DNA of 64,000 nt from an uncultured Methanosarcinaceae archaeon (GCA_963833425.1 CAWHXP010000009.1:32001-96000), one strand, 5' to 3'; positions 6,910-27,451 are shown, numbered from the stretch's first letter. Program-made: numbers and translations. Notes: generated by a model from the sequence alone, not told the origin.

Positions 6910-8257
6910 GTTCCCTCCATAATTACATCTAAATTAATACTTGAATATATATGTATGCTAGTATTTTTTTTAGAGAACATAGCTTTATACCTTAATTAAG
7001 TAGTTTCGAATCTCGTCAATTCTGGAACTATTTTTATGAATTAATCTAAACTCAAAACAGCTATGAAAGACGATGAAGTCGTTGATTATGACTATGAAAA
7101 ATGACTCTCCTCTGCATGGCCACAGTCTGTTTATTATCTGTGTTTCTGAATTATGTTGTATCATTGATATCATAATTTTGTCGTATAGTCACTTTACTGA
7201 ATGGGTCAAATTGTAATTATCAAGAAATTTTTAATGTTTTATTCTGTGCTGTGATATATTCTACAAATTATTTTGAATTTGCAATTAACGATCTAAGGTT
7301 AGTGATCTTAGAGATGATAATTTCCCAAGGGTGTAATAATTTTAATCATCTTTTGATTTTATCACATTTTCTTTCTGCATTTACCAGGAAATATATTTTT
7401 GGAAAGTATATATATCTTAAAGAAGCAAGCGACTGAAATTTTATCAAGTCAAAAAATTTTTTGGTAGGAAATTACATTTCTGAAAATCATTTTGAATCCA
7501 ATTTTTAAATGAGAACTCTTCTGCTTCTTCAGCATTATTGATTACTATATAGCTTGATTCTTCTTTCATAAAGGGATAATATAAAAACAACAATTTATCA
7601 TTTTAAATACTTTGATGGGTTATCATTAAAAAATTATACTCTCCAATTCTTCGTGTTTTCAACGAGATCCTATGATTTATTCGAAGAAGAACTGTTCGAT
7701 ATAAAAAGAAACTGTAATTATATTTAAAATTAGTCCATATGCATTGGATAACAGTTATATAAAATCCGCATTCTTATCAATATAATGGCAAACTGGGGGC
7801 AAAACGAATTGTTAGGTTGAAGTCTCACTCAAGTATATTAAATGTATATTTGTAATCGTTCAGTATTTTCTCAATTTGATCATGCAGAAATCATTCCTAC
7901 AATTTATAGGATTTCAATAAAATCCGATTTTCACGAGCCATCTATATACTATTTATAAGGATTGGATGATATTTAGGGGTTCATGAAATCCTACTTAATT
8001 TATTGGGAAACTTTTCGTATCATTTTTGAATTCATGTCTCATATCAAATAAATTAATTAGCTTTCGATTTTATTCTTGAGAAGAAAAATGAAGAATTTTG
8101 AATAATCGTCCGTAGTATTACACTTTAAGGCATGGAGTAAAAGTGGAAATATGAAAACCACGTTTTCACATGAAAAATACTATGTTGTAGGAAAATATAG
8201 GCTAAGTCCAAATAATATTTTAAAAAAAGCATTTGCTTAGAACTGATATAAATATTC

Positions 8258-8272
8258 TATAGTCCTGAGCGG
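8258..8272. repeat. att site (left junction): duplicate of the tRNA-Gln 3' end
   Basis: Identical to 42169-42183. Imperfect similarity extends leftwards (8231 atttgcttagaact vs 42141 atttacttagaact). Confidence 0.9.
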
Positions 8273-8318
8273 TCTATACATCATAAGTATATAGTCCTAA
8301 ACAATATATTCCATATAC

Positions 8319-9530
8319 ATGACTAAATCAGTCGATGATGTTCATTGTATGGAAACTGGTTATTTAAATGCAAAACAAAGATTGAAAGACGCAGAAATTG
8401 GGGAAGAAAATAAAGCATTGATTGAAAATTTTTCAATTGCCCTTAGAAGAGAAGGGATAGCCAAAGCGACAATCACATGGTATTTAAATTATATAACCAG
8501 AATGGTTCAGCGCCTTCAGGAAATAGGATTCAATGAGAGTTTGGACAAGCTGGATTCCAAGACTTTTGACAGATTTCTTATTTTTCTTGAAGATGATAGG
8601 AAATTATCCGCTGGTACAATAAGAAATTATAAAAAATTGATAAAAAAATTTAATAAATCTGCCACTGATGGTAATCCTCCAAAATGGATCCGGGACCTGA
8701 AACTAAAATCGATTGAAAGTCCCATACAGCCTTCTGACATCCTTACTAAAGATGAGTTTACACATCTTCTTGAAGCCTGTAGACATCCACGGGATAAAGC
8801 CATAATTTCGATCCTTGCGGATGGTGGAATTAGAGTAGGAGCCTTAGAATCCTGTAGGATTAAAAATGTGGAGTTTAATCAATATGGAGCAATGATTTAC
8901 CTTTCAAAAACTGGAGTCAATAAAACCACACAGGCAAAGGGAATACCAATCACTTGGAGTGCGGGATTTTTAAATCAATGGCTTGCGATACATCCTCTCC
9001 ACGATGATATGGAAGCCCCCTTATGGGTTACTCTAGATAAAAATAAAGAAGCTTTGAGTTACAAAACAATACGAAAAATGATAAAGATTACAGCTGAAAA
9101 AGCAAGAATTAAGAAAAATGTATATCCGCATTTGCTACGGCATATGGCTATCACAAACTGGATTTTAGATAGTCTTAACGAGCAGGAAGTTAAGCGCAGA
9201 GCGGGCTGGAGTCGGGGAAGTACCCAAATGTTCAAAATTTATGCAAATTTCACGGATAAGGAAATCAATGACAGCATTTTCGAGAAATATGGACTCAAAA
9301 CAGAAGACAAAAGACATGTTACACTTAAGAAATGTCCACGATGTAATAATGTGCTAAAACCAGACAATAAATTTTGTAGCCAATGTGCACTGGTTCTTGA
9401 TCAAGAAACTGCTTTAAAACTAGAAAAAGACAAAGAAAAACTAGACTTGTCATTCTTAGAAGTTTCTAGTGTTGATCCAAAGGTTTTGGAGAAAATAGCC
9501 ATGGAAGTCAAAAAACTCCTAAATAAGTAA
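8319..9530 (+). CDS. int: Tyrosine recombinase/integrase with C-terminal zinc ribbon
   Basis: Catalytic R (GGIRVG), HxxR (YPHLLRH), W (AGW) and Y (KIYA) all present; CPRC...CSQC ribbon; adjacent to the att repeat. Confidence 0.92.
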   Translation: MTKSVDDVHCMETGYLNAKQRLKDAEIGEENKALIENFSIALRREGIAKATITWYLNYITRMVQRLQEIGFNESLDKLDSKTFDRFLIFLEDDRKLSAGTIRNYKKLIKKFNKSATDGNPPKWIRDLKLKSIESPIQPSDILTKDEFTHLLEACRHPRDKAIISILADGGIRVGALESCRIKNVEFNQYGAMIYLSKTGVNKTTQAKGIPITWSAGFLNQWLAIHPLHDDMEAPLWVTLDKNKEALSYKTIRKMIKITAEKARIKKNVYPHLLRHMAITNWILDSLNEQEVKRRAGWSRGSTQMFKIYANFTDKEINDSIFEKYGLKTEDKRHVTLKKCPRCNNVLKPDNKFCSQCALVLDQETALKLEKDKEKLDLSFLEVSSVDPKVLEKIAMEVKKLLNK

Positions 9531-9850
9531 ACTTAAAATGTAAGCATAATATTTTTCTATTTATTTCTGTTATTAAATATCTTACTTAATATATAAAACA
9601 AAAGTATCTATACAAAATAAAAAGATTGCTTATTCAAAATAAGATTATTTATTTAATCTAACAACTTGGAAATATGTTAAATAAATCCATATACAAATAA
9701 ACGATAGAAAAAAGATAAAGTTGAATATTATGCGAGAGTATCTAGTAAATTCTTCTGTTAGACTTTCTTCAAATTACCAGTGTCTCTCTAAGTTTGTAAT
9801 TTTTTAATGGAAAATTATTTGGTCCCACTTAAATCAAGAATAAATGCTGG

Positions 9851-10901
9851 TCAAATTAAATCCATTTGATACTTTTCGCATTCCTTAATTCCTGCATCTA
9901 ATTGTTTGTCGTTTGTTATTATTAAGTATACCTCCATTGCTTTTCTTAATTCACGAATTTCGAAAATTGATTCTCTGAAATGAAGATTATTTGCATTTGA
10001 TATTTATTTTTGGGTTTTTTTTAAGAGTTCTATTATTTCTCTTTTTGATTGACGAATTTTTTCATCTGATATCATGTCTTTTGTTGCTGTGAGTTTTTCC
10101 CATCCTGGCATATATGCCTTTATTACATGGAGTGAGAATGGGTTTTCTGTACTGAACATTTTTTTAAGTTCATCCATGTTAGCACATTTTTTGAAGGCTC
10201 TATTGATGTAGAAGGTTGGTATATATATTCTCTTCCAGTTATCGGGATCTCGATCATGTTTCTGATCCGTTGTGCAGCTCATGCCCACAAAAAACATAAT
10301 AGGTTTTTTAATATAAACTATTAATTTATTCTTGTCAGAAATCAGAAAAAGTTTGAAAAAATCGGAGGATAACTGTAATTTTTTTTAAATGATTTTTCTC
10401 TTTTTTCAAAAAATATAACTTCGTTATATTTAGCCCTATCATTCTTATTTGGATCAAATATTTTATAGGAGAAGCTTACGGTAGTTTTTGGAGATGTACC
10501 GAACCAATTTTTATTTACATATCCCACAAATCTACGATTCAAAAATTCCAAATTATTTAAACCACAAATTAAATCTAAATTTTCGCGAAATATACATTCA
10601 AGAATCGAATCATTTTTTTGCATTTTGGGTATTAATTTTGGATATTCTTTGCATATGTTACGTATATTCTGAATACTGAAGACGATCGAATATAATGTGG
10701 AATCTTTTCGACCTTTTCCTGATTTTACCTTCTTATTTTCAATAAACCCATTTTTTTGAGTATGCCTAAATCTCTGGAAATAACATTGTAACCTGGCGGC
10801 TCATCTGGCTTAACATAACCTAGTTCACTTATTAATTCTACAGTCGTTTTAGAAAATTCTAATAAACTATCTAAAATTCGTTCCTGGTTTGTTTTTTTCA
10901 T
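9851..10901 (-). pseudogene. Winged-helix transcriptional regulator (~350 codons), broken
   Basis: ATG at 10901 reads MKKTNQERILDSLLEFSKTTVELISELGY...ISRDLGILKK. A frameshift in the T7 run near 10751 joins it to ORF 10342-10623, another near 10345 joins ORF 10004-10297, and the frame stays open past the TAA at 10004 to ~9851. Confidence 0.6.
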
Positions 10902-11207
10902 GTTATGTGGATATTCTAATTTATATTAGAAGCTGTCTGAGAATATAAATTTAAAAGTCGGCGAATTTGGATATTTTGCTGATTTTCGCAATTTATTAAT
11001 TTTTGCCGATAAAAATTGTTTTAAAGTTTAAAGTCTATTAAACTTCTATTAAGATCACAATTAGGGAAAGTCTGCGAATAAGCTAGAAAACCAAAATCAA
11101 ATTTTCGCATACTTTGTGCTATTTGTTTATCTTATGTGAAATTTTTCCCTAACCTTTGGAGATTCGTCTTGACAAAAATAAAAACTTTATTAGATATAGG
11201 TGAAATC

Positions 11208-11387
11208 ATGTTTAAATTCGGGAAAAGAACTGTGATAAAACAGGGAGGAAGCTTTATGATAGCTCTACCGATGATTTGGATGAAATCGTGGGATTCAGAT
11301 GTGAAAAGTGTGATGATAGAGATGGACAGTGAAAATCAACTTAGAATTATAGCAGGTGATACGTGCCATGAAAATATCGTCTATTAA
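11208..11387 (+). CDS. AbrB/MazE/SpoVT-like small DNA-binding protein
   Basis: MFKFGKRTVIKQGGSFMIALPMIW fits the swapped-hairpin motif; RBS-like AGGTGA precedes ATG 11208. Confidence 0.7.
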   Translation: MFKFGKRTVIKQGGSFMIALPMIWMKSWDSDVKSVMIEMDSENQLRIIAGDTCHENIVY

Positions 11388-11413
11388 ACTACACAAGAGA
11401 GTTCGATAGCTGC

Positions 11414-11719
11414 ATGTTCAAAAAATGTAATGCATCTGGGAGAGAGAAGCAAATGAACGATCTAAAACCAGAAACGATAGAAATGTTTAAAAAATTTTAT
11501 ACAGAATTCTCTGACTTAATTGACTATAGAATTAAGTGTGGAAATGTGTATGAACAGGCACAGGCTATATTAATTAAAAGTGTTGCTAAAGGCGTTTCGC
11601 AAATACCGTCGCGGCCAAGCAGTCGGAAAGTTTGCAAAACACCCATACAGACGCCTACTTTCATCGCGAGTGACCCACAAGAACAGAGCGACCCAGAAAT
11701 GAGAAGTTACGCATCATGA
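11414..11719 (+). CDS. Hypothetical protein of the element core
   Basis: 101-aa ORF co-oriented with and directly after the AbrB-like gene; no recognised motif. Confidence 0.5.
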   Translation: MFKKCNASGREKQMNDLKPETIEMFKKFYTEFSDLIDYRIKCGNVYEQAQAILIKSVAKGVSQIPSRPSSRKVCKTPIQTPTFIASDPQEQSDPEMRSYAS

Positions 11720-11836
11720 ATAACATAGTCTACATGCTAAATATAATTTCCTTTTTTAGCTCTGCAACTAACGGTTGCATGTACAGCCTAAGGACATCTA
11801 ATTCAACAAATTCGAAAATATGGATAATTTTGTAAG

Positions 11837-12241
11837 GTGATTACTATGAATTATAAAAAAGATTTAGCTATTCGGTGTAAAGAAAATTTGAATTCGTTAT
11901 CGGACGAATATATGCTTGAAATAACTGATGCCAGTTTTAGGCATATAGATGAAGTACTAATATCATTGTATGAAATATTAGACAATTATTTATCTCAAAT
12001 AAACGTTCTTCGGGAGCCTAAAATGTTTGCAGCACTTAGTTCTAAAACACTAAAAGTGGCTACATTATCAGATTTGGTCACTAAAAGTGCAGAAGAATTT
12101 GAATCCTTAGACATTCTCAAAGTGTTACTCGAGGGTAAGACAGTGCATAATATTTTCCAAGAAGGGGATTCTGTGAAAATCGAGATGCTTGGAGATAATG
12201 CATTGAAGATTTCCGGTGAACGACCTAGAGAAAATGAATAA
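11837..12241 (+). CDS. Hypothetical protein of the element core
   Basis: 134-aa ORF with AAGGTGA RBS before ATG 11846, followed by a hairpin. Confidence 0.55.
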   Translation: MITMNYKKDLAIRCKENLNSLSDEYMLEITDASFRHIDEVLISLYEILDNYLSQINVLREPKMFAALSSKTLKVATLSDLVTKSAEEFESLDILKVLLEGKTVHNIFQEGDSVKIEMLGDNALKISGERPRENE

Positions 12242-12266
12242 AGGTAACAAAAATTGAGAGATTTGA

Positions 12267-12296
12267 GCCCAGGACAGATTGAGCCCTGTCCTAGGC
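12267..12296. terminator. Stem-loop after the 11.2-12.2 kb genes
   Basis: gcccaggacag-attgagcc-ctgtcctaggc, 11-bp stem with one mismatch. Terminator function is inferred from position. Confidence 0.35.
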
Positions 12297-12961
12297 AATT
12301 CAGATCGTCATCTCCAATGACTGAACTATTATTAATTATACTTTCATAGTTAATAATAATATCTTATTCAAATGATGGTTCTGATGCTAAGGGTTCTGTT
12401 GTTCTCTTCGAATTCAAGGGGGAATAAAACCCATGAAATATTCTGCGTATAAACAAAGTGGTATTAGTGTTTTTTATCACAATTTTGATAGTACCAGATT
12501 TCAAATTACTTACAATTCTCTCGTCACATCCGCAGATGGACACAGAGACAAGGTGCTTAGTCAAATTAATAATTTGTTTTATTATTGGCATAGACAGAGT
12601 TGTTCTAGACATACCGATACTTATAACCCGTGGCGTCTTCCAGAAGAACCAGAGAATTGCTCGAGAGCAGATATTACGAGATCTTGTCGCTTGGGAGTGG
12701 GATTTTGATGCCAAGTTTCTCCGATCTGGAATATTTTTTTAGTAGTAGGCAGAGACCTACGACTCATCATCTCTATGAATTCCATATGGAACCTAAGAGA
12801 TGTTGGGAAGAGCAACAGGATAGAGGATGAATGAATTTTGATTCTCTTGATATGGTTTATTCTGAAAGAAGTAGACAAAACATCAGGCATTTCATAAATT
12901 TAAAACGAGCACCTGATCAGTCCTTTTCCAATGTATCGGTTACGGATCTACAGTTTGAAGG

Positions 12962-15210
12962 ATGGCTGAAAAGATGAGTTCTGAACCTACAATGCTTGAA
13001 GCTGCATTAAATTACACAAGGTTAGGAATGATAGTACATCCTTTGATAAATCCCAATGCACCTGAGATAAACCCTAAAACAGGGGGAAAACAGAGCCCAG
13101 GTAAAGGAGTTTTGGTAAATGACTGGCAAAAAAGGGAAAGTGCCTTAACGGAAAGAGAAATAGAAAAATATTGGGGATCTAGTAGGAGTTTTTACTTTGA
13201 GAATGCAAACATTGGCTTGCAATGCGGGAAAAGATCAGGTCTTATTCTAATCGATCTGGACGACTGGAATCCTGCAATATGGAACGAACTCACAGCTGGA
13301 TTAAACACAGATAATTGGTTGATGTCGAAAAGGACAACGAACCGGGGACATATCTTCTTTAAATACACCGAAGCTCTGAAAGCTCAAAAAACATCACGAT
13401 TTAGGCATAGAAATTTTAACAAATGGCAATAATGCAGTCCTACCCCCAAGCAAGCATAAAAACGGGCAGATTTACTCATTTAATAGGGAAATCAGGACAC
13501 TTGAAGATGCCCCAGAAATGCCTGAAAAACTCATAAACAGGCTTATAGCCCTATTTGGAACCAATAATAAGTTAAAAGTGATTTTGCAAAAGTGCAAGCC
13601 CTGTCTACGTGAAAAATTCAAAGCCCATCAAGAAAGTCCGAATATCACAGAATTGCATACCAGCACAGGCAGACAGTTAACTCTGGCACTTATGGCAGAT
13701 ATGAAGGCTAATGGTGCAGACCCTGAAATTTTACACCTTGCCTGTAAATACCTTTTTAGAGATGATTACACACAGTCACAAAGTGATTCTGAACTAGGTG
13801 GAGACGGATGCAAAATAAAAAGCCCTTGGAAATGTGAAACTATCCAGAGAGAGTTAGGAAGCATTACACTTGCTGATGACCTTAACTCAAAATGTGATAA
13901 TTGCACTTTCAGAGGCCAGAATAAACAGATATATAGCCAGAAGAAATCCGAACAAGAAGTTCAAAAAGATAATCCCCTAAACATAGACTATGATGAAATG
14001 GACCTTAGCCCAGAACTTATCCAGCATGCAGATGAAGAATCAGATCGGGTATTGAGAGAAGGCGACCCGATAGACTATATATTGAACACAATCGCAAAAA
14101 AGCATATAGGGGACCGAAGATACACAAGAAGCGATATGTGTCTCAATAGCCTGTCAGTGTTGTCTTAATACTGCAGGCTTGCAAATATCAGTAAATGGAG
14201 CTTCAGGCTCTGGTAAATCACACGGAATAAAAACACATCTACATTTAATTCCCAAAAAATGGAAACGTGTAACCGGATTAAGCGCGAAGGCTGCTTACTA
14301 CATGAATTTAGCTCCAGGTATCATTATTTTTTCGGATGACAAGGATCCTGACCCTGCATTTGAAGAAGTCATAAAACAAGCTACAACAAACTTTCAGGAA
14401 GAAACTTACTACACAACCGTTAAAGATCAAAAACAAATATCTCTGGTAATTCCACCCCGTATAAATTGGTACTTAACGAATGTGGAAAGCTTTGTATCAG
14501 ATCAATTATCAAAGCGTCAACTCACCTTTGATGCAGACAGCAATCCCGAGCAGAAAAAAAGGATATTTGATGCGCAGAAACACGAAGCTGCGAATGGTGG
14601 GAACGGGCAGGAAATAAACACTGAAGTACTTATATGTAGACGAATGTTTGGAAAACTTAAACAGAATTTATTTAATGTTAAAATACCCTTTGTGGATAGG
14701 ATAAATCTACATGATATGAATAATTCACGCATATTTCCAATGTTCCTTGATATGATTCGCGGTTTTGCTGCCTTCAAATGGGAGCAGAGAATCTTTGACG
14801 ACGGTGGATATTTACTAGCTGAGATTGAAGACTTCGAAAGGGCAAAAAGGTTATTTGAAGCTCAAAAAGAGAACACAGTAACAAAAATTAACGAAAATGA
14901 GAGACGGATAATCCAATATATAGCGAGTAAAGGGAAATGCACAATTAATGATATATCGAGTTACACAGGCATTAATTACCAATCCGTTAAACGCGCTCTA
15001 TTTGGAAGAAAAGATAGGGAAGTGGGTGGGCTTCTTGACAAGATCAAAGAGTTAAAAATGGACGAAGAAACTGATATAGACTACAAAAGGGCAGGAGATA
15101 CCTTGATAAGCAGTAGTGGCAGGAAGGCTTTTAAATTCAGTATAGATAACTCAAAGTTCAATTTCTGGTCACTATTTGATAAGGAGTTTATCTTCCTGAA
15201 GGATGCCTGA
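12962..15210 (+). pseudogene. Fused Prim-Pol primase / P-loop helicase replication protein, split by two +1 frameshifts
   Basis: N-terminus ANIGLQCG..LILIDLD..RGHIFF (Prim-Pol). Dropping one A of the A6 run at 13386-13391 continues HHDLGIEIL..NAVLPPSKH into ORF 13518. Dropping one base near 14115 continues EDTQEAICVS..GLQISVNGASGSGKS (Walker A). C-terminal wHTH-like region. Confidence 0.85.
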
Positions 15211-15237
15211 TTAGGGTATGAAGTCAACTGATCCTTT

Positions 15238-15534
15238 TATTCCCCTAAAATTCCCATTTATCCCAAAATATTCCCGTTTTATTCCCATTGAAACGTAATC
15301 AGTTGACATTTTGTTCCCAAAAACCCGAAAATGCAAGAGAGAAATAGAAAATTACACTTTTTGACATTCTAATATTTCGGCTATTACTTTAAAATATCAT
15401 ATATCATTTTTTTATTTTGGGAACATAATTCCCCTTTTTATTATGATTTTAATTCCCCTGTTATTGTTTTTATATTATTTTTAATGGGAATATAATGGAA
15501 AAATAACAGGAATAATTGGGAACTTTGGGGAATA
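15238..15534. other. Putative replication origin: inverted TTCCC/GGGAA iteron arrays
   Basis: Five TCCC units at ~10-11 bp spacing (15240-15286) mirrored by five GGAA units (15486-15532), an inner tgttcccaaaa/ttttgggaaca pair and AT-rich spacers. Lies immediately after the rep gene. Confidence 0.7.
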
Positions 15535-15796
15535 TAATAGTGGAAGACTTGCTTCTAATATGAAATATACATAACGAACAGGGTTAGCCTTAATATCACA
15601 TTTTTGTCTGTTATATTTTTAAAATTTCCCCGTTTAAACTTCTTCCATCAAAATTTTCTACATAACCAGCTATTCAAGCATCAAAATAGTATCAATAACC
15701 ATTGCAATTACTAAGTGATAATAAAGCATAAATACTAATAAATAGTATATAGTAGCGTAGTTTTTTGAAACTTGACTGGCTGGTAGATTGGATAAT

Positions 15797-15945
15797 ATGA
15801 AAGGTGGTAAAACAAGATTCCAACAGAAGTTTACAGAAGATACGTTCCTGAACGCTCTATCAATTGATAGCATAAAGTCTACTGCAACTGTTATTAGGTG
15901 GTAGGATGCAGCAGGTCCACAGCTAAAAACATGCTTTATAAGTGT
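15797..15945 (+). pseudogene. Small HTH-like gene remnant downstream of the putative ori
   Basis: MKGGKTRFQQKFTEDTFLNALS..KSTATVI, then VGCSRSTAKNML in a shifted frame; cut at an IS5-like end (gtgttgtagaaatc). Confidence 0.4.
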
Positions 15946-16417
15946 TGTAGAAATCTATTGCAATGGATAAAACTTTTAGCCAGGTATTTCACCGAGTCAC
16001 TTGTACAGTGGCTGGATTTCCGTTGTCTGTCCATAATTTTCTCTTTATGCAATCCGTTTATCTGATTCAGTCAGTTGAATTTCTCACGATCTGTTTACCA
16101 CACAGTGGGGAAAATGTCTCACGTTTTCTGGGATTTGCCTACCCCCTGATCGGTACAATATCCGAAGTAATTTGATTGATTTAGCGCAGTGCCTTCTGAG
16201 ATAGCTTGATGTCGGCTGTCGATCCAGTTTGTATCAACTGTTACATGGCGTGACCACGATAGAGACATTTACTGCCGGGTTGGCGAGCATCCCGACAGCG
16301 GCTAACTAGCTCCGGAATCACTGTCAATCTACCATATCTGTGAATCTGCAATAAAAACATCGTGTAGAGTTTAGCCATCAAATAGTCGATAAATTGATTC
16401 CTCAACAGGTCATTGGA

Positions 16418-17176
16418 TTAATATTGATCCCTTAGAAATTCGATATCGCTGCGTCGATAGTTTCGTAATAACCAGAGACCATAGATGAAAAGCATCAAAG
16501 AGAACGCAAGCAATGCCAGATCCCAAATGGAATTTGTCAGAAATGACAGGCAATCCCACAACCAATGAATTATGATTACCGGAATAATTGTGTTTAGGCG
16601 AATTCGCAAAGCTGCAGTCCAGATACCAAACGTACATGCAAAAAAAGCCTGAAGGACGCTCGCTCTAAAATCTCCAGTGATTAAGCTATTTAATATATGG
16701 ACTGAACCAAAAATAATCGCTGTGATCCATACTGCACGCCATATCCCAAATGATGAAGAAGCCCCATATAACAATATGCCACGAAACATCAGTTCCTCGT
16801 TGATTCCTACCATCATGGTATTGATGATTACAATCGTAAGAACCCCGAGTGATGGTAGATTGGCATATAAAACAATCAGTAGTATGAATAAAAGCGATAG
16901 AGCTGGGGGCCATAACAAACGTAAATCTCGGAAATTATTTGGGCTTTTCCATCCAACTTGAGGCCACCATCTTAAATAAGTAATAACTCCAGTCAAAAAG
17001 ACAATTTCAACTAGCTCCCCAAACATGATCTGTTTTTCAACTAATCTTTCAAGTTGAATGTGATGCCCCTTAACCTGTAGAAGTCCTCCTACCACTATGA
17101 AACTTAGCCAAACTATAAATATTATCAGTGAAGTAGGCCAAGATTTTCGTGATACATTCATTTTTGTTTTCTCCAA
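16418..17176 (-). CDS. CPBP (CAAX/Abi) family intramembrane metalloprotease
   Basis: Multi-TM protein with EELMFRG, FGSVH and IIHWLWD motifs. Confidence 0.88.
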   Translation of the reverse strand: MEKTKMNVSRKSWPTSLIIFIVWLSFIVVGGLLQVKGHHIQLERLVEKQIMFGELVEIVFLTGVITYLRWWPQVGWKSPNNFRDLRLLWPPALSLLFILLIVLYANLPSLGVLTIVIINTMMVGINEELMFRGILLYGASSSFGIWRAVWITAIIFGSVHILNSLITGDFRASVLQAFFACTFGIWTAALRIRLNTIIPVIIIHWLWDCLSFLTNSIWDLALLAFSLMLFIYGLWLLRNYRRSDIEFLRDQY

Positions 17177-18208
17177 AAGAGACGTAAACCATCATTATCA
17201 TAGATATTTGAGTCATTAGTATCAAATTCAAATCATGAATTGATGTTGTTTTTAGCTTCTTCATTATGTAGTTTGTCTGTCCTGTACAAAAGGTGAAGAA
17301 TATGTTCCATCAACGACATCAAGCCCTAGAACACCTTTGTAGGAGACCATTAGTTTGGTTTATCTATAACATTGTTTAGCCTGAAATGAGTGAAGATCCT
17401 ATGTTGAGTAAAGAGTAGTCAAATGTGATATTCTGCCCTACATCATTTTAAGTTGATGGGAATATTTTTTGACTATTAAACTGCATATTATTCGATTTAA
17501 AGCTTAAAGAGATTCTTTTGATTCTCAAAAACAGTACTCATTTACCTTTTTAGTCAAAATTAATTCTCAAATAAACACTAATTTTAGACATAAATTGACA
17601 AATAAATTCAAAAATAAAAGAAATTAGGGCAGATTTCCAAAAAGGTTATTAGTGGTGTAACTATAAAATAATTTACGATTAAAATGTGGGGTGATGACGG
17701 ACATTGTGTGCGAACCCAAAAAAACTGTCATTACTTGGCCATAGCTCAAGATGCTTTTAGGATCATAACTCAATTTTCTTCTTTTTATTTGCTATCAAGG
17801 TTAATATTTTTCTAGTAGCTAATGAATCGACTTACTCTCAGCTAGTACAGCAAATTTTTTATTCTCTTCTTTTGGATAAACCCTACAATGCTCAATAAAA
17901 TGTCTTAAATTGTTCCACAATCGATCTTCATATATTTTTAATATTCATTTCATTTACAGTGAGTATTGTAATATAGAATCTCAAATTAGCTCTTGAAATC
18001 TCTAATCTAATTTGATGCTCGTTTCTTTTAAATATTCATTGCCTAACGGTAACATAAGTACATATCGACTCGTTCGGCAGCCTATTCGCTCACTTTGTCA
18101 GCGATCCAGGAAACTTCGCGTAGATAAATAACACTGGTTCATTGTTCTGGCCGTTATCTTTTCTCCACTTCTAGCCAAGTTTATACTCCTGCAAAGATAA
18201 ATAAAAAC

Positions 18209-18748
18209 TTATTTTTTCTCGATGATCCCACAGATAACCCGCACGCCACTGTTTCCAGCAGGGTTTGTCATCTCATCATCAGGATCAGCATGGATAACCA
18301 GTGAAGTGCCGTTGGCTGTGAATAGCGTAGTCGGCCCTGATGACAATTTCACAAGGGTGGTGGTGATATTCATATGCCCCATACCATTCTCTCCCACTTC
18401 TAGATTGGGTAAATCACCTGCATGGGGGCCTTTCGGGTTGTTTAGGCCATGTTCTTTGCTCAAAGGATTGTAGTGGTCGCCGGCCGAGATGAACGACGGT
18501 CCAGTGCAATTTCCTTTATTATGGATATGAATGCCATGCAAACCTGGTGTCAGGCCGTTCGCGTTGACGTTGATGTGGACCAGGCCACTAGCATCCTCGG
18601 TAAAGTTAGCCAGCCCCACTGTATCGCCCTTCGCATTTTTCAAGGTAGCTATAGCATCATGTGTGGTACCTTCATAGGCATAGATCGTAGTTGCAGCCAT
18701 CAGCATCGCCGAGGTAATTATTACTAATAACAATCCAGTTTTCATCAA
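18209..18748 (-). CDS. sodC: Cu/Zn superoxide dismutase with signal peptide
   Basis: HGIHIH, GDHYNP, HG..PHAGDL, VIHADPDD and GNSGVRVICG motifs; hydrophobic N-terminus. Confidence 0.93.
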   Translation of the reverse strand: MMKTGLLLVIITSAMLMAATTIYAYEGTTHDAIATLKNAKGDTVGLANFTEDASGLVHINVNANGLTPGLHGIHIHNKGNCTGPSFISAGDHYNPLSKEHGLNNPKGPHAGDLPNLEVGENGMGHMNITTTLVKLSSGPTTLFTANGTSLVIHADPDDEMTNPAGNSGVRVICGIIEKK

Positions 18749-19057
18749 CTATTCCTCTAAAATTTTTCTGCAAATTAGTAATCAGAATTATTTAGTGCAT
18801 CATAATGGACTTCAGACTTCATAGTAGGCAAGAGTCCCAGACACCTAATATAATCAATTACTGGATACATTTTCCCCATCTTGCTAGATCCCTCTGAAAT
18901 AAAATACCTCAAATTCCTGTGCTAATTAGTTATTACAATTTAGGTTTGCGTTGAATTTTGATGCCCACAGTTCCTGTAGCTCCCCTATAGACACTGTAGC
19001 TTCCTTAAAGGCACTGTCACATGCAGTAAGACATACGCGATTGAACTAAGAAATCTA

Positions 19058-19240
19058 TAACTTACGCACTTAAGGATAAAAATCAAGAACAATAGATAGT
19101 TTGGTCAAATTCATTATTCAGACAGTTGAACTGCGTAGATCCTAAAAATCAATAAGCTTTTTAAACCTAAAACTGCCGAAATTATAATATTTTTGGTAGA
19201 TCTATTCACCGTTTATTTTGCTCCTCAAGCACATAAGTCC
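19058..19240. mobile_element. MITE-like element (family B, GGACTTACGCA ends)
   Basis: aacttacgcactt ... aagcacataagtcc; ends match the better-preserved copy at 47552-47665. Confidence 0.5.
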
Positions 19241-19282
19241 TAATGATAAAAGAAATATCTATCATTTTGCAAGATGAAAGAA

Positions 19283-19609
19283 TCAAATTGCTCTACCATT
19301 ATTGCAAAAATACATTATTGTATTTGCATTCTCCAGGCAGTAATCGTCCCAGACAGAGCAGGTTTTACAAATGCAATATCTGTTAGGATCTAAGTCGCTG
19401 CAGGTAGCAGTACCAGATGAACAGTAGACTCCAGGAACCTTGTAAGGCTCTGGAGCTTCATCTTTCCCTAAACTTTTCATTTCATTTTTTAAGTTTCCAA
19501 TTTTATCCAATGTGCACGCACTGTCAACTTGGACAGGACACTGGGGACACATGCATCTTTCGATATTTGTTACAGCATAAGGAACTTTTACTTATCCAGA
19601 TGTACCCAT
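19283..19609 (-). pseudogene. DUF2769-like Cys-rich protein with an early nonsense codon
   Basis: Reads ATG GGT ACA TCT GGA TAA GTA AAA GTT CCT TAT ... TGC ATG TGT, in frame with CPQCPV..YC..C..CICKTC..YFC. Confidence 0.65.
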
Positions 19610-19740
19610 TTCAATCATTTGACTCCCTCTATAAGTTATCTTTATTTAGACTTACTTCACGATAAATATGAAAGTCTTGAAAATCTTTATATGAAACTCT
19701 TCATATGTTCATTTTAAGTTACAGTATACAATTGCCCAGT

Positions 19741-19838
19741 ATTTATTTTAAATTAATTATACAAAAAATAGTTTCTGAATAAAAATTACTTCCCCATAAA
19801 ATGTTTTAAAACCAAAACATAATTTTATATTAATTATG
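19741..19838 (-). promoter_or_regulatory. Conserved ~100-bp promoter module, copy 1
   Basis: Near-identical to 24892-24991 and to the reverse complement of 25233-25329; upstream of the DUF2769-like gene. Confidence 0.65.
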
Positions 19839-20559
19839 TTTTTATTCTACTCGGAGATCCTCGCAAATTTAACATTGAGCTTTTTCCTAGAAAGCATCCA
19901 GAATTCCAGATATAGGAATTTCGAAACAGAATATAGTCAAATTTATTGAAGTTGTGAATATTTCATAAAATCGATACAGAAGGAATTAGCTATACTGTGT
20001 ATGCAGTCCCTACTATATCCTCAAGATTAATACTGCAAAAAAAATTGAAGATAATTTGAAAGACTTTAGGGATTTGCTCTATTTAAGGATGTTAAGCGAA
20101 TAAGTGATGGTGTGGCTTCCAGGCTTCCTTTTGCTCTCAACTATAATATCAGTGTCAATAGCAGACTTTTGCAGGGTTACATAAACACAAAAAAAATGAT
20201 ATTAATTGATTATGTGCAAATTCCAAAATGGGAGTCTTTTATTTAATTAGCTTAGATGGTTTAGTCGATCTTAGATGTAAAAAAAGTTGATCTTTTGAGC
20301 TGCGGGAGAAAAGATGCCTGCAGCCCATAGAAGGATTGGTTGAAGGTAGGGTAGACCTTTGAATTAGAACTAGATTCAATTTATTATATATTTTTTGGAT
20401 ATATTCTAGATAGAATACTCCTTAACTAGTAAGTATTAAACTTTGGACGAAATCTTATTTTAAAATCAAAGTACGCCTATTTAATAATATAATTTATATA
20501 TTTATTAAATAATAAAAGTGTATGAAAAATATCGCGTGTTTACTTACCATGCATCGTAA

Positions 20560-20792
20560 TCTAAATCATGGAAATCAAATTGGTCAAAAACTGACTTAAT
20601 CTGGGGTCACTAGTTAGTATTTTATCGAAAGTAATGAGTGGTAACTATTGCCCTACTTAGAAAACGTCTATAATCGTCTTATAATGGCTCAGATTTGATG
20701 GATATGAATCCCGCTGCAGTGCAGAACGAACGAACTAAATATTAAAATACAAAACAAGCTAATATTATTTGTAAAGAAAAAACGATGAATCT
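20560..20792 (+). repeat. Conserved non-coding block upstream of the terS-like gene, copy 1
   Basis: gacttaa..ctg.g.tcactag and ataatggctca.attt..cccgct..cagaac motifs recur at 31749-31830 (partial) and 41180-41428. Confidence 0.7.
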
Positions 20793-21215
20793 ATGAATCG
20801 CCCATCAAAGCTAACACCTGAAATTCAACAGAGAATCGGTGATAATATTGCACTCGGCTTGACTTATAAGTTGGCTGTCGAATCTGCTTGTGTCACTTAC
20901 AAAACGTTCAATTTTTTGATGACTAAGGGAAAAAATTCAAAATATGGGGAATACATTGAGTTCTATAAATTTATTCAAAAATGCAACGCGGATGCGGCAA
21001 ATAAATGCCTTGAGAAACTAAACGAAGCAGCAAAAGCAGGAAACTGCACGGTGTGTATGTGGATTTTGTCAAGAAGGTTCCATGAAGATTTCGGCAGAAG
21101 ACAATATCGTAAAATGGATGTCGTTTCAGAAAACCTGAATCAGAATGTTAAGATAATTGTCAATGATGCAGATGAAATTAGAGAGATAATTCTAAAAAAG
21201 TTTGCTTTCAATTAA
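20793..21215 (+). CDS. Terminase small subunit-like HTH protein
   Basis: MNRPSKLTPE N-terminus, HTH segment, helical core and WILSRRF.EDFGRR motif resemble phage TerS-like proteins (recognised by eye). Confidence 0.6.
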   Translation: MNRPSKLTPEIQQRIGDNIALGLTYKLAVESACVTYKTFNFLMTKGKNSKYGEYIEFYKFIQKCNADAANKCLEKLNEAAKAGNCTVCMWILSRRFHEDFGRRQYRKMDVVSENLNQNVKIIVNDADEIREIILKKFAFN

Positions 21216-21672
21216 GGAATCAATTTTAGCAAGTTTGTCTCCAACTAACTGAAGACGTTTGTATCCTTCTTTATGAGCAAAAATCAGTAAGAGTTTTTAT
21301 AAATATGAATTGTTATCAAGAGATTTAAACTCTCCAATGCTTAAATGCAGAGGCGTTTATCGAAAATATCTATATTCTTTTCTTCCACACCAAATTCCTC
21401 TTTTCATAAAAGATCCCGTTTCCCTTGTACCATCACTTATAATGAGTCTTTCAATTTTTATAAGTCTCCGTACTAATCGGCTAATCATCATAGCACAAAT
21501 TGGTCCAAGTTTTCGGTGATTGCACTCATGTTGGTCATACTCTTGAATTTGTATTTTCTGTATGCTCTTCAGAAAGACTGTGACTTTTGTGATTTTTCAA
21601 GATGAAAGAGCGGAGCCACCCAAAAAACAGGCGCGTTCAAAATGTTTTCCTCATCCAGGTTAAAAACAAATT

Positions 21673-23073
21673 TTATACTTCTTTATGTGGATATGCCATC
21701 CGATACGGGTCCACGATTCGGTCAAACTCTTCATCCGATATCAGGTTCAAGGCGATATTTGCTTCCTTTAAAGAAGAGTTATGATCATCGGCATAATGGG
21801 CTAGCTGAGATGCTTTGTCATACCCGATTTCTGGGCTCAGTGCAGTTACGAGCATCAGCGATTCCTTTAGGTACTGATCGATCCGCTGTTTGTTTGGTTG
21901 CAGATCCTTAAGCAGATACCGCGTAAAGGTATCGCAGCTATCGGAGATAATTCGAACTGACTGGACGATGTTGAAGATCATCAGCGGCTTGTATACATTC
22001 ATCTCGAGATAACCGCCGGCATTGGCTAAGGAGACAGCATTGTCGTACCCCATTACCTGTACGGCGACCATGGTCATGGCCTCACACTGGGTTGGATTTA
22101 CCTTACCTGGCATAATAGAGGATCCTGGCTCATTGGATGGTATTATCAGTTCGTGTAAGCCGGCCCGGGGTCCGCAGCTCAGGAGCCGAATATCATTAGC
22201 AATTTTATACAACGACGTTGCTAGGACCTTCACTGCCCCACTGGCTGCAGCCAGTGCATCGTGCGATCCCTGCAAAGCAAACTTGTTCGGTGAGGTGATG
22301 AACGGAAACCCTGTAAACTGGCCGATTTTTTTTGCCACCAGAGCATCGAATCCACTGGGGGAATTTAACCCAGTACCGACTGCTGTCCCGCCAAGTGCAA
22401 GTGTATACAAATCATCCCGTGCCCGCCCCAAGCGGCTGATAGCCTCATCTAGCATCGTTACATACCCGGAAAACTCCTGACCCAAAGTGAGGGGAACTGC
22501 ATCCTGCAGATGAGTCCTCCCGATCTTGACTATGGAATCCCAAGCTTCAGCTTTTTGCTTCAGGTCTGTCTGCATGTTTTTCAAGGATGGGATCAGCCGA
22601 TTATTGAAGAGGAAGATGGTGGTGATATGCATCCCTGTCGGGAACGCATCGTTGGAAGACTGCGATTTATTGACGTCGTCGTTCGGATGAATCGGAATTT
22701 TGCTCCCCATCACCCCGCCTGAGAGCTCGATCGCCCGGTTGGAAATGACTTCATTCACGTTCATGTTCGACTGGGTACCACTCCCAGTCATCCAGACGTG
22801 CAGTGGAAAATGGTGGTCCAACTTTCCGCTGATCACCTCATCGGCAACCCGGACGATTAGATCTGCTTTTTCCTTTTCCAGGGTGCCCAGTTCAAAATTA
22901 GTCAGCGCTGCAGCCTTTTTAATAAGGGCGAGTGAATGTATCATCTCGATTGGAATGAGATCATCACCTATTGAAAAATGCATCAACGAGCGTTGTGTCT
23001 GTGCACCCCAGTACCGATCGGCTGGAACCTCGATGCTTCCCATGCTGTCGGTCTCCATCCTCTTATCAGTCAT
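21673..23073 (-). CDS. fumC: Class II fumarate hydratase
   Basis: GSGTQSNMN, KIGRTHLQDA and GSSIMPGKVNP signatures. Confidence 0.95.
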   Translation of the reverse strand: MTDKRMETDSMGSIEVPADRYWGAQTQRSLMHFSIGDDLIPIEMIHSLALIKKAAALTNFELGTLEKEKADLIVRVADEVISGKLDHHFPLHVWMTGSGTQSNMNVNEVISNRAIELSGGVMGSKIPIHPNDDVNKSQSSNDAFPTGMHITTIFLFNNRLIPSLKNMQTDLKQKAEAWDSIVKIGRTHLQDAVPLTLGQEFSGYVTMLDEAISRLGRARDDLYTLALGGTAVGTGLNSPSGFDALVAKKIGQFTGFPFITSPNKFALQGSHDALAAASGAVKVLATSLYKIANDIRLLSCGPRAGLHELIIPSNEPGSSIMPGKVNPTQCEAMTMVAVQVMGYDNAVSLANAGGYLEMNVYKPLMIFNIVQSVRIISDSCDTFTRYLLKDLQPNKQRIDQYLKESLMLVTALSPEIGYDKASQLAHYADDHNSSLKEANIALNLISDEEFDRIVDPYRMAYPHKEV

Positions 23074-23085
23074 CCAAATATCCCC

Positions 23086-24738
23086 TCATACGATATAGCT
23101 CTCATAATATGGATGATACATCTTTGATTCCACCAGTTTGATGATATGGTCGTCATAATTTGGTCTCTCCACCCGTGCAAACCCTCTTTCAAAGATCACC
23201 CTGGCCACGGCTTCCGCCATCGCGGTTGCCACAGTGACGATCTGGGATTCAGGCGGGAAGAGCATCTCCTTATCAATCTGCTCCCTTGTGAGCTGGTTCG
23301 CTAGTGTCTTGGCGGCAACGAGAAACATCTCATCGGTGACCCTTGTTGCTTCCGTTGCGAAGACGGCCATGCCCACTGGGGGGAATATCCATAGGTTATT
23401 GGCTTGTGCGGGCTGGAACTCACGGCCCTGGTAGGCGACCTGAGGGAACAGGACACCGGCTGCAAACAATGCCTTTCCATTGGAATATCTGTAGGCCTCT
23501 TCTGCAGTGCACTCTTCCTGAGTCGTCGGGTTGGAGAGTGGGAAGATTAACGGTCGTTCATTGATCTCGGCCATTGCCTGAATCACTTCTTTGGTGAATA
23601 AGTTCGGTTGGGTCGAAACTCCTACAATTGCCGTGGGCTTTATCGACTGAATAGATTCCACAAAAGACACCAGTGGCGAGTGCTCGTGAGCATACGGTTG
23701 CTTAAAGAACTCCAGACGTTCTCGACCTTTGACCACCAGGCCTTTCGTATCGAACATCCAGCACCGAGTCCGTGCTTGCTCGTCCGTCAGTCCCTCTTGT
23801 TTCATCGCATAGCAGAGCATATCTGCGATTCCCCGTGCTGCAGAGCCGGCACCGAGAAAGAGGATGGTATGCTCGCTGATCTTCTTCCCGGTGTAGCGCT
23901 CTGCCGAATAAAATCCAGCTGCTGTCACTGCACCAGTCCCTTGGATGTCGTCATTGAACATGCACACCTTCTCACGATATCTCTCCAGGAGTGAAACGGC
24001 ATGGTAATTGGCGAAATCTTCAAACTGGATACAACACCGGGGGAATAATTCCTGTACTGCCTGTACAAACTCATCCACTAGCGCGAGATATTCGGAGCCA
24101 TCTGTACGTGGCTGACGCAACCCCATATAGAGTGAGTCATTCAGGAGCTCCGGGGTGTTCGTCCCGACGTCCAGGTGTACCGGCAACTGGTACTGCGGAG
24201 GTACACCTGCGATCGCCGTGTACAGGGCGAGTTTTCCGATTGGTATGCCCATGCCATTTGTTCCTAGATCCCCAAGGCCCAGAATCCTTTCGCCGTCGGT
24301 GATGACGATAAACCGAACATCCTTCTCCGGCCACTGCTGCAATATAGATTTAATCTTTCCTTTATCCGCGAGTGAGAGATAGATTCCTCGTGTTTTCCGG
24401 AAGATATGACCGAACTTGAGACATGCCTCACCTACCGTTGGGTCATAGACAATCGGAAGGAACGTAGCAGGGTCCGAGATCAATAACCGATAATATAGGG
24501 TCTCGTTCCTGTCCTGCAAGTTGGCTAGGTACACAAATTTGTCGATATCTTGTGATAGATGAGATATCTGGCTTAATACACGCTGTACCTGCGTATCCTC
24601 GCTCTCGATAGCAGCAGGAAAGAATCCTTCTAGACCTAGAAGTCTTCGTTCTTCCAGTGAAAAGGCTCCGTCTTTATTATAGCGAGGGTTATTCAATAAC
24701 TCAATGCCTTTCGGGATATTTTTTTTCTCCATATACAA
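23086..24738 (-). CDS. maeA: NAD(P)-dependent malic enzyme (large-subunit type)
   Basis: TDGERILGLGDLG, IQFEDF, FNDDIQGTG, GAGSAA and LSNPT motifs. Confidence 0.92.
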   Translation of the reverse strand: MYMEKKNIPKGIELLNNPRYNKDGAFSLEERRLLGLEGFFPAAIESEDTQVQRVLSQISHLSQDIDKFVYLANLQDRNETLYYRLLISDPATFLPIVYDPTVGEACLKFGHIFRKTRGIYLSLADKGKIKSILQQWPEKDVRFIVITDGERILGLGDLGTNGMGIPIGKLALYTAIAGVPPQYQLPVHLDVGTNTPELLNDSLYMGLRQPRTDGSEYLALVDEFVQAVQELFPRCCIQFEDFANYHAVSLLERYREKVCMFNDDIQGTGAVTAAGFYSAERYTGKKISEHTILFLGAGSAARGIADMLCYAMKQEGLTDEQARTRCWMFDTKGLVVKGRERLEFFKQPYAHEHSPLVSFVESIQSIKPTAIVGVSTQPNLFTKEVIQAMAEINERPLIFPLSNPTTQEECTAEEAYRYSNGKALFAAGVLFPQVAYQGREFQPAQANNLWIFPPVGMAVFATEATRVTDEMFLVAAKTLANQLTREQIDKEMLFPPESQIVTVATAMAEAVARVIFERGFARVERPNYDDHIIKLVESKMYHPYYESYIV

Positions 24739-24891
24739 TCCCCTTTGATAATTTAGGATATTTGATGTTCTTAGATATTTATCGAAAATCCTACTCTAAT
24801 TTTCACGAGTTTTCGATGTAATATGTATAAGATCTGACAAAAATTAGGTGTTTATTGAAATCCTCTTTAGGACGCAATTACAATTATTTTC

Positions 24892-24991
24892 TTAATTATT
24901 TTAAATTGATTCTAAAAAAAATAGTTTCGGAATAAAATTTACTTTCTCATAAAATATTTTAATATCGAGCAATAATTTGAGATTAATTATG
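24892..24991 (-). promoter_or_regulatory. Conserved ~100-bp promoter module, copy 2
   Basis: Matches 19741-19838; upstream of the malic enzyme-fumC operon. Confidence 0.65.
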
Positions 24992-25232
24992 GATAATTTC
25001 GAATTACCTTTAATTTTTTTCTTCGTAAGAATCCTGTTTAAATCTTTCCGTAAATTTCTGTATTTGGTCTAATTTTTTCTTTTCTTGTTAATTATTCTTT
25101 GATTTTAAAGATAGCTTCGCTATCGTTAAAACACTCTTTTTTAATTCAGAGATCGTGATAGAGACAATGATGTAAACAGTGAGAATTTATTTAATGATTT
25201 GTCTGCACCCAGGGTAGCCTATCCCGAATTGT

Positions 25233-25329
25233 CCATAGATTTAAATTATTTTTTAGCTTCAAAACATTACATAATAAAGTAAGTTTTGTTCAGAAACTAT
25301 TTTTTGTGTAATTAATTTAAAATAATTAA
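25233..25329 (+). promoter_or_regulatory. Conserved ~100-bp promoter module, copy 3
   Basis: Reverse complement matches copies 1 and 2; contains TATA-like TTTAAAATA; upstream of ORF 25488. Confidence 0.65.
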
Positions 25330-25487
25330 ATGGATAAAAGCTACCTTGTAGCTTAAAGTGAACAGATAAAGAGTGAAAGAGTGGGGGAGGACCTGTAGGA
25401 AGTAGATAATTTTGATGAGCTTTGAAATTTTTTTACAACTGCTCATTAATGACTTTTGGATAGGCTCTAAGTCTCGAGGAGAACCAT

Positions 25488-26813: not shown

Positions 26814-26833
26814 CTAGATAGGAAGATACACAA

Positions 26834-27451
26834 ATGACAAGTATACCAATACGTGATCAGATTAATGATCGGCTGCTCACCCCGAAAAATGCAGCGCTTA
26901 TAATAATTGACTACCAGCCGGTTCAGGTGGCCTCTATAGTCTCGATGGATCGTAAGGTTCTGGTTGACAACATTGTGCGCGTTGCGAAGATTGCACGAAC
27001 ATATGAATTACCGGTCGTGCTGTCGACTGTGAACGTGAACAACGGTATCAATAAACCGACAATCCATCAGTTACAAGAAGTGCTGACCGGAATCGAGCCT
27101 CTGGACCGAACGGTGATCAATGCCTGGGAAGACAAAGAATTTGTCCAAGCTGTCAAAGCGACTGGTCGCAAGAAGCTAATCATGACAGCGCTGTGGACAG
27201 AAGCATGCCTCACTTTTCCTTCGCTCGACGCAATATATGGTGGCTATGAAGTCTACACTGTAGTTGATGCGGTTGCCGGAACCTCCGTCGAGGCACACCG
27301 TGCGGGGCTGAAGCGCATAATTCAGGCCGGTGGAAAACCAGTGAGTTGGGTGCAACTCGTATGTGAGCTTCAACGTGATTGGGCCCGCAAGGAAACAGTG
27401 CAGTCGTTCAAGCAGATTCTGTTCGGAACTGTCGAGCCTTGGAATGAGTAG
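26834..27451 (+). CDS. Isochorismatase-family hydrolase (YcaC-like)
   Basis: ALIIIDYQP, RTVINAWED and LWTEAC catalytic motifs. Confidence 0.88.
   Translation: MTSIPIRDQINDRLLTPKNAALIIIDYQPVQVASIVSMDRKVLVDNIVRVAKIARTYELPVVLSTVNVNNGINKPTIHQLQEVLTGIEPLDRTVINAWEDKEFVQAVKATGRKKLIMTALWTEACLTFPSLDAIYGGYEVYTVVDAVAGTSVEAHRAGLKRIIQAGGKPVSWVQLVCELQRDWARKETVQSFKQILFGTVEPWNE

Follow-up and report, generated by a model that had tools for sequence, protein, structure and literature searches.

Small integrative elements that end in a gene for a small terminase subunit (TerS) recur in methanogens of the genus Methanosarcina and their relatives from peat. We describe them here from a copy in a 64,000-nucleotide (nt) stretch of DNA from an uncultured Methanosarcinaceae archaeon (GCA_963833425.1 CAWHXP010000009.1:32001-96000), called the window throughout. 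On sequence comparison, window positions 8271–21215 are a decayed copy of this element family, with an intact TerS homologue of 140 amino acids (aa) at the distal end. The best reading of the family, which we hold with a little less than even confidence, is a helper-dependent satellite resembling the phage-inducible chromosomal islands (PICIs). In its fuller form, put forward tentatively, the elements would be multi-copy PICI-like satellites of archaeal tailed viruses in Methanosarcina and its peat relatives, with TerS as their sole virion-related gene and with swappable replication modules.

To our knowledge, the sole job of the TerS protein family is to mark DNA for the motor formed by the large terminase subunit (TerL). 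Because TerL is absent from the elements, helper-dependent packaging would be the most economical explanation, and the lone retained TerS suggests travel in the capsids of a helper virus. We argue from the sequences that TerS is a working part of the elements and not debris, because they share one end point while carrying several replication modules, because no structural-gene fragments lie nearby, and because TerS is under selection.

The TerS homologue, its relatives and its orphan state

The terS-like gene that an earlier note on this DNA had placed at 20793–21215 is supported by sequence profiles, with only weak agreement from the fold. Its product matches PHROG 4102, 'terminase small subunit', over residues 1–119 of 140 (E = 1.7e-15). 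Two paralogues score higher against the same family (1.6e-23 and 4.9e-25) and have matches in two additional TerS families. Searched with a profile, 1.84 billion cluster representatives yielded 7572 relatives at E ≤ 1e-3. When 55 diverse full-length homologues were compared with PHROG, all 55 matched phrog_4102, 41 matched phrog_1482 and 33 matched phrog_309, and all three of these families are named TerS. Among solved structures, the best match of the homologue profile is gp1, the TerS of phage Sf6 (E ~0.01, residues 2–113 against 7–123). By these sequence criteria, we assign the 140-aa protein to the Sf6-gp1-like TerS superfamily as a true member.

The AlphaFold2 (AF2) model of the protein is all-helical, with a predicted local distance difference test (pLDDT) score of 87.9. 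Sf6 gp1 (PDB 3HEF, 4DYC) resembles the window TerS in its length (140 aa) and in having an N-terminal helix-turn-helix (HTH) followed by a long helical core. It is the best solved relative by both profile and fold ranking, at 15–18% sequence identity in Foldseek and a template modelling (TM) score of 0.32–0.38. In BFVD, which contains viral proteins only, seven fold matches reach E ≤ 1e-3, and TerS is the name given to 12 of the 50 best. The modelled fold is thus consistent with TerS, if weakly so.

Close TerS proteins (66–80% identical) fall into 502 clusters, with no Pfam domain on the 120 matches listed, and occur only in Methanosarcina or Methanosarcinaceae genomes and in peat metagenomes. 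A species-level genome collection yielded 75 TerS loci, many per genome in five assemblies of Methanosarcina sp. or uncultured Methanosarcinaceae; a further locus, from a record labelled Alphaproteobacteria, is a duplicate of one in Methanosarcinaceae. Metagenomes of the Joint Genome Institute (JGI) contributed 425 stretches that match TerS. The source genome of the window (4.07 Mb in 21 contigs, 80% complete) has 43 TerS matches that merge into 32 loci, nine of them full length and two of those nine with stop codons. Across 121 sampled genomes of the host family, 15 have a TerS match, the source genome included. Within the same genus, six of 19 genomes carry one TerS copy each, and Terminase_6N found no match in any of the six.

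In three other genera, most TerS matches directly adjoin TerL (e.g. in genomes G019, G056, G077, G091, G106 and G119). A PHROG scan of five such loci identified real tailed proviruses, with a phrog_4102 TerS (~1e-28) directly before TerL in three of the five and with MuF-like head, portal, capsid and tail genes appearing among them. TerS before TerL in Methanosarcinaceae proviruses indicates that the host family's own tailed viruses use the phrog_4102 TerS family. Distant homologues (25–41% identity) were also found on 38 viral contigs, where the first large downstream open reading frame (ORF) is TerL in 22 of 34 tested.

The N-terminal HTH of TerS, which has weaker matches to the HTH domains of Hin/DNA invertases and of response regulators, leaves room for exaptation. 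Here, the elements would be integrative and plasmid-like, with a TerS-derived DNA-binding protein, and the element itself would go unpackaged. Possible roles for the protein include an excision directionality factor, a regulator, a partition protein, or a decoy that disturbs packaging by infecting viruses and so serves in defence. The names 'transposase' and 'abortive infection protein', given by one source to some close copies, would suit such roles, as would the high copy number per genome, the lack of a helper in the source genome (see below), and the fact that Pfam and PHROG scans recognised no excisionase elsewhere in the elements. We nonetheless consider exaptation rather unlikely. The TerS match is nearly full length in both comparisons, with PHROG 4102 and with Sf6 gp1, and extends well beyond the HTH; the distal position after the replication module is the place of terS in PICIs; and the same family supplies the true TerS that stands beside TerL in proviruses of the host family.

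On the satellite reading, TerS would be both a working gene and the only packaging gene of the elements. TerL does not lie directly downstream of TerS at the window gene or at any of 155 loci of close homologues. Comparing these 155 loci (1.82 Mb) with 17 TerL queries and seven portal, MuF, capsid or neighbour queries at E ≤ 1e-4 gave no match, and context maps of the TerS loci showed no structural gene. Judged from comparisons among paralogues, TerS is under purifying selection, with a median ratio of nonsynonymous to synonymous substitution rates (dN/dS) of 0.175 over 21 pairs; saturation affects most synonymous sites, and the ratio is 1.39 for one pair that is nearly identical. TerS also lies within a sharply bounded conserved unit that runs from about −350 to just past the stop codon. 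The leader of this unit, ∼330 nt conserved in 58 related loci, combines a TATA-like box with several blocks that hardly vary, and its last letters, just 5′ of the start codon, are AAAAACGGTG. It has no Rfam match and no consensus RNA structure, and could be a promoter or a packaging (pac) site, for both of which it is a candidate.

These results also bear on a reading of the elements as relics of tailed proviruses that have lost all genes 3′ of TerS, so that TerS would have no present function and the copies would be decaying debris. The source genome offers some grounds for it, as 25 of its 32 TerS loci are broken, the window copy is itself decayed, and a TerL remnant is present. Moreover, the integrase, regulator and AbrB modules are common with a TerL-bearing congeneric element at the same chromosomal site, and NitKor-E1, a similar terminase-only element of Thaumarchaeota, was read by its authors as a likely relic (PMC6563490). 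Random decay would not predict that all 155 loci lack any TerL, portal or capsid fragment beside TerS. Across several genomes, elements with two integrase types and no fewer than four different replication modules stop at the same place, just past TerS, and TerS retains both its own conserved leader and the low median dN/dS given above. We regard the relic reading as improbable.

The TerL remnant of the source genome lies at C2:103811-104417 (locus L165, 11811-12417). It is a fragment of the C-terminal nuclease domain and is 37–45% identical to TerL of Methanosarcinaceae proviruses. This piece, left over from a past tailed provirus, is the only TerL remnant in the genome. A crude scan of the genome for arrays of clustered regularly interspaced short palindromic repeats (CRISPR) found none.

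Layout of the family and of the window copy

To define the family, we clustered the ORFs around TerS in the source genome and in the 75 loci of its relatives and scanned the clusters for protein families. Whole elements measure ∼6–10 kb from integrase to TerS, and the best-preserved loci end in TerS. They encode, in order, an integrase (two types), a leftward regulator (two types), an AbrB-like gene, a replication module, a small winged helix-turn-helix (wHTH) gene with or without a 132-aa protein, and TerS. The replication module may be a PrimPol/D5-type helicase, a helicase-wHTH protein, a family-A DNA polymerase (PF00476, 8e-28), a DUF927 helicase or a UvrD-like helicase. The 132-aa protein gave no usable match in the ESM Atlas. 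Of 88 mapped loci, 81 have a TerS ORF in the clusters, and in 18 of these a leftward coiled-coil protein follows TerS; by map reading an integrase lies upstream on the same strand in 19 of 88, mostly 6–10 kb from TerS.

This layout recurs with different replication modules in the source genome, in five species of metagenome-assembled genomes and in three complete or near-complete congeneric genomes. Two of the congeneric elements are ∼12.3 kb long, carry an integrase, regulator, AbrB-like gene, DUF927 Rep and TerS, and end at a DUF6908 gene. One chromosomal site is common to two TerS-only elements and one TerL-bearing element without capsid genes, in three congeneric genomes. The source genome holds sister families. 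Family A includes the window copy and three sister copies on contigs C5, C10 and C20. A second element family in the same genome (L019, C18:897-7605; L020, C21) has a 584-aa family-A DNA polymerase between the AbrB-like gene and TerS, which is unusual as a replication gene among archaeal integrative elements.

The gene order given for the window copy by the earlier note, from an integrase through a leftward regulator and a rightward AbrB-like gene, a primase-helicase, an iteron origin and cargo to a terS-like gene, is present as follows.

8271..8318, plus strand: left border of family-A homology (four copies), which starts GGTCTATA, ∼50 nt 5′ of the integrase start codon
8319..9530, plus strand: intact 403-aa tyrosine integrase, extended at its C-terminus by a zinc ribbon (Pfam, PHROG)
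10004..10901, minus strand: leftward regulator, broken into ORFs of 97, 93 and 58 aa; the whole form has 263–339 aa in sister copies
11136..11387, plus strand: AbrB/SpoVT-like small protein, 83-aa ORF, likely true start ATG at 11208
11414..12241, plus strand: two small ORFs of 101 and 134 aa, kept in sister copies, with no Pfam or PHROG family match
12962..15210, plus strand: PrimPol-helicase-wHTH replication gene (Rep), pseudogene in three frames (pieces 12962–13432, 13518–14168 and 14179–15210)
15235..15537, no strand: iteron-like origin, inverted TTCCC/GGGAA sets around an AT-rich spacer, directly 3′ of Rep
15797..15904, plus strand: first 35 codons of a wHTH gene, 77 aa long and placed before TerS in intact copies, here truncated
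15948..19673, minus strand: cargo patchwork, recognised by family matches and by DNA likeness to other chromosomal sites
16418..17176, minus strand: CPBP/Rce1-like protease (Pfam)
18209..18748, minus strand: Cu/Zn superoxide dismutase (Pfam)
19283..19552, minus strand: Cys-rich 89-aa ORF of the cargo
20453..20792, plus strand: conserved non-coding leader of the TerS module, with the TATA-like box near −300
20793..21215, plus strand: orphan TerS homologue, 140 aa, intact (PHROG 4102)
21196..21374, no strand: dispersed repeat of ∼170 nt adjoining the TerS stop, outside the element, with 129 genome matches

The integrase matches the Pfam family Phage_integrase (PF00589, E = 4.1e-16) and a PHROG integrase (1e-27), and has an N-terminal SAM-like domain (PF13495, 1.2e-8); its zinc-ribbon matches in the Pfam scan are weak. 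We therefore predict a tyrosine recombinase in which both the catalytic and the SAM-like N-terminal domains are present. Copies that are 81–82% identical lie on C5, C10 and C20. The AbrB-like ORF has no Pfam match of its own. It aligns with a protein of family B, a sister family (pairwise E = 1e-6), which matches PF04014 MazE/AbrB at 2.3e-6. The Prim-Pol part of Rep (12962–13432) was recognised in Pfam (6.1e-9) and as a DNA primase in PHROG (9.2e-11). The leftward wHTH regulator of the earlier note survives as leftward ORFs in the expected place, but these are three fragments of a pseudogene, and the only sign of an HTH is a weak match of the 58-aa fragment to HTH_5 (ArsR-HTH, E = 0.034).

An inverted-iteron origin after the primase-helicase had likewise been proposed, and three kinds of evidence agree with it. 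Two arms of 59 nt each (15235–15293 and 15479–15537), 71% complementary, stand 185 nt apart. Within 316 nt the region packs 11 TTCCC/GGGAA motifs, a count attained by 0 of 1274 sliding windows, whose mean across the window is 0.76. It is also conserved in the three sister copies. The stated absence of capsid, portal, large terminase and tail genes holds as well. Pfam and PHROG scans of the ORFs found no TerL, portal, capsid or tail gene in the window element, and across 16 window ORFs the TerS-like ORF alone gave a virion or packaging match above threshold. The Cu/Zn superoxide dismutase has a sub-threshold match to Phage_tube_C (E = 0.02; 15.7 bits, where 24.1 are required).

From window position 8271 onwards the four family-A copies are homologous in DNA; in all of them this likeness stops at 15942, inside the wHTH gene. 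The proteins of the left half, Rep included, are 88–100% identical to those of the sister copies, and the window TerS is 53–63% identical to theirs. The C20 copy has 98% DNA identity over 10982–15942 and carries a 100% identical broken Rep. Two genes that precede TerS in whole copies, encoding 132 and 62 aa, are missing from the window copy, and each cargo gene has a counterpart with 77–88% DNA identity at a separate chromosomal site (three other sites in all). The window copy is defective because the regulator and Rep, on sequence both pseudogenes, are fragmented, the wHTH gene is cut and the two pre-TerS genes are missing. The earlier note had called the element possibly decayed, and so it is, with its packaging-proximal module partly replaced by cargo.

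The 12.9 kb is probably composite, because its left half is 88–100% identical to the sister copies and its TerS only 53–63%, which places the TerS module in another lineage than the left half; it would be either a recombinant or two remnants side by side. The latter account divides the window copy into an integrase-to-origin part (8271–15942), a chromosomal or patchwork part (15943–∼20240) and an unrelated solo TerS module (∼20241–21215). It concerns the window only and is compatible with the satellite, relic and exaptation readings alike. The abrupt loss of sister homology within the wHTH gene and the unequal identities of Rep and TerS agree with it. So does the finding that, among the matches listed, the closest relatives of the window TerS are 77–80% identical proteins from other assemblies. 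The cargo, moreover, consists of paralogues of genes at three other loci mixed with dispersed repeats, and solo TerS modules and arrays of such modules are common. We consider this account plausible without calling it probable, as the order and orientation of the parts are exactly those of whole elements and module shuffling, pre-TerS genes included, is the rule in the family. Because such shuffling is usual, a recombinant single element is equally possible. A joint from 15823 to 20820, from a comparison with four contig-only sequencing runs, was set aside as untrustworthy, having sides of only 27 nt at 90% likeness.

Several features lie beside the element or interrupt its relatives. Another remnant of a helicase C-terminus and iteron origin, 84% identical to 14868–15612, is found at 30709–31458, 9.5 kb downstream; the ORF within it (30728–31051) has no Pfam match. 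The intervening block at 21673–29000 has ∼50% G+C against ∼36% for the genome, encodes a class II fumarase, a malic enzyme and other enzymes, and is probably foreign DNA. Dispersed repeats also occur at 7908–7992, 17462–17618 and 19740–19846, with 140 blastn matches for a ∼100-nt unit and 129 for the ∼170-nt unit; they look like families of intergenic repeats, or of repeats akin to miniature inverted-repeat transposable elements, unlinked to the element. The ∼170-nt repeat was considered as a target site, an idea we dropped because it adjoins TerS only in the window copy. Likewise, an extra 0.9 kb after TerS on C10 and C5, at first a candidate part of the element, is an insertion sequence of the IS6 family (C10:94075-94950 and C5:160200-161065; loci L017 and L018). 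It occupies the same place just 3′ of TerS in these two sisters and encodes a 234-aa DDE_Tnp_IS240 transposase (E = 6.4e-48) between terminal inverted repeats GGTTCCGTTGCAAAAA, and the homology between C10 and C5 stops at its outer repeat.

Weighing the satellite reading

If the elements are satellites, their cycle would begin when a tailed virus infects or is induced and the element excises. The excised element would replicate from its own origin. TerS would then bind a site in the element, for which the conserved leader or the terS region is a candidate, and would recruit the helper's TerL and procapsids, so that element DNA would be packaged in place of viral DNA. We infer each of these events: induction, excision, a pac site, TerS–TerL contact and packaging.

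A number of observations weigh against this reading. The five best PDB fold matches of the TerS model are all Sf6 TerS chains, but they are weak (Foldseek E 0.46–1.1 at the TM scores given above, none at E ≤ 0.001). Among viral contigs, the nearest TerS shows 41% identity across 68 aa and ∼33% across longer stretches. Searching a viral contig collection with the single window TerS found no relative, and the replication proteins of the elements (PolA, helicase) found none in a viral collection. In the source genome, at 80% completeness, there was no match to Terminase_6N, TerL_ATPase or Phage_capsid, and no helper. A circular form, as judged by terminal overlap, appeared at none of 80 metagenome loci.

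Copy number and integrity tell the same way. The window copy is decayed and probably composite, as set out above, and non-functional, since only its integrase and TerS remain open among the core element genes. Just seven of the 32 TerS loci in the source genome are open and full length, and so many copies in one genome are unusual. The earlier note had suggested a search for co-occurrence of an integrase, a Prim-Pol helicase and TerS at tRNA genes. This association is partial: in the 58 loci where the upstream DNA extends for 9 kb or more, 16 have an integrase, 25 a replication gene and 13 both, counted with queries that cover only the module types already seen, and no tRNA target emerged.

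The integration site is also elusive. An att had been claimed at the border of the window element, yet no direct repeat of at least 12 nt brackets the window element or any of its three sister copies, and the window tRNA scan places the nearest tRNA genes at 938–1023 and 42171–42243, neither adjoining the element. Exact repeats of 11–12 nt or longer, sought in the flanks of these four copies and of two congeneric elements, yielded nothing convincing as att, and neither did junction alignments or tRNA scans.

Finally, a third congeneric element at the same chromosomal site as the two TerS-only elements has a 171-aa ORF and a 452-aa TerL, and no capsid genes. The earlier note had named intact relatives with their own capsid or TerL as the counter-indication. 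None was found at the 155 TerS loci, but this one related element does carry TerL. It is locus L164 (G007 C15, ∼27456-37574), ∼10 kb long, with an integrase, regulator, AbrB-like gene, DUF927 helicase, the 171-aa ORF and a complete TerL. Its 171-aa ORF has no similarity to the window TerS. The element is flanked by SNF2/PLD and DUF1156 methylase genes in what looks like a defence island.

The satellite of a head-tail virus that the earlier note had proposed is in keeping with the architecture and with TerS. Neither an att or tRNA target nor signs of a helper, of an excised circle or of packaging in virions turned up, and we keep it conditional. It is directly testable, as complete congeneric genomes contain single whole copies. 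Should it prove wrong, one would still have to explain why selection maintains an orphan TerS at the end of dozens of elements.

Significance and comparison with known systems

A full-text search found no description of an archaeal integrase-replication-TerS family in the literature it covered, and many subscription papers lie outside that coverage. In the literature found, satellites of tailed viruses that pirate a packaging motor are known only from bacteria. If the elements are satellites, they may be the first terminase-piracy system in Archaea, one that arose independently of bacterial PICIs; we offer this as a possibility that falls short of probable. Terminase piracy would then also have arisen in Archaea, by way of the integrase-replication-TerS family of methanogens, and helper viruses of peat Methanosarcina would await discovery. 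The elements would also provide an added route of gene transfer, here with oxidative-stress and membrane-protease cargo, in methanogens, which drive wetland methane emission.

The closest parallel is with the Staphylococcus aureus pathogenicity islands (SaPIs) and other PICIs that have their own TerS. As laid out in the accessible text of one account (PMC6092414), PICIs carry regulators, pri-rep, ori and terS in that order. The window family is likewise a small island with an integrase at one end, divergent regulators and accessory genes; with a primase-helicase followed by an origin of two iteron sets around an AT-rich spacer; and with terS near the distal end and no structural or lysis genes (PMC6092414). 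The differences are as clear. The host is archaeal, and the regulators are of archaeal wHTH and AbrB types. Instead of running with the repressor, the integrase here is co-directional with the replication genes, and these come as interchangeable modules (PrimPol, PolA, DUF927, UvrD). TerS loci number up to 32 per genome. We recognised neither capsid-size nor interference genes and could define no unique att.

Among archaeal elements, NitKor-E1 of 'Candidatus Nitrosopumilus koreensis' is integrated and encodes TerS, TerL and an integrase, with no other tailed-virus gene (PMC6563490). It is a single case, which its authors read as a probable relic. Like the window family, it is integrated in an archaeal genome and has kept terminase genes while lacking those for capsid and tail, and its type resembles the TerL-bearing congeneric element, with its integrase, regulators, DUF927 Rep, 171-aa ORF and TerL. 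By comparison, the window family has TerS only, occurs in many copies and genomes, and brings its own replication module.

Other proposed archaeal satellites depend on other helpers or take other forms. pSSVx, with fuselloviruses, and the plasmid-derived SRCEs of haloarchaea are satellites of spindle-shaped viruses (bioRxiv 10.1101/2025.02.15.638363), and NMV2S is a putative Asgard satellite, a small circular episome with a siphovirus helper (bioRxiv 10.64898/2026.08.12.739948). As far as the accessible texts go, all of these share with the window family a small archaeal genome, a plasmid-like replication gene, an incomplete morphogenesis module and the proposed use of helper virions. The accessible descriptions of pSSVx, SRCEs and NMV2S mention no terminase subunit, whereas the elements described here are integrated and retain the TerS of a tailed virus.

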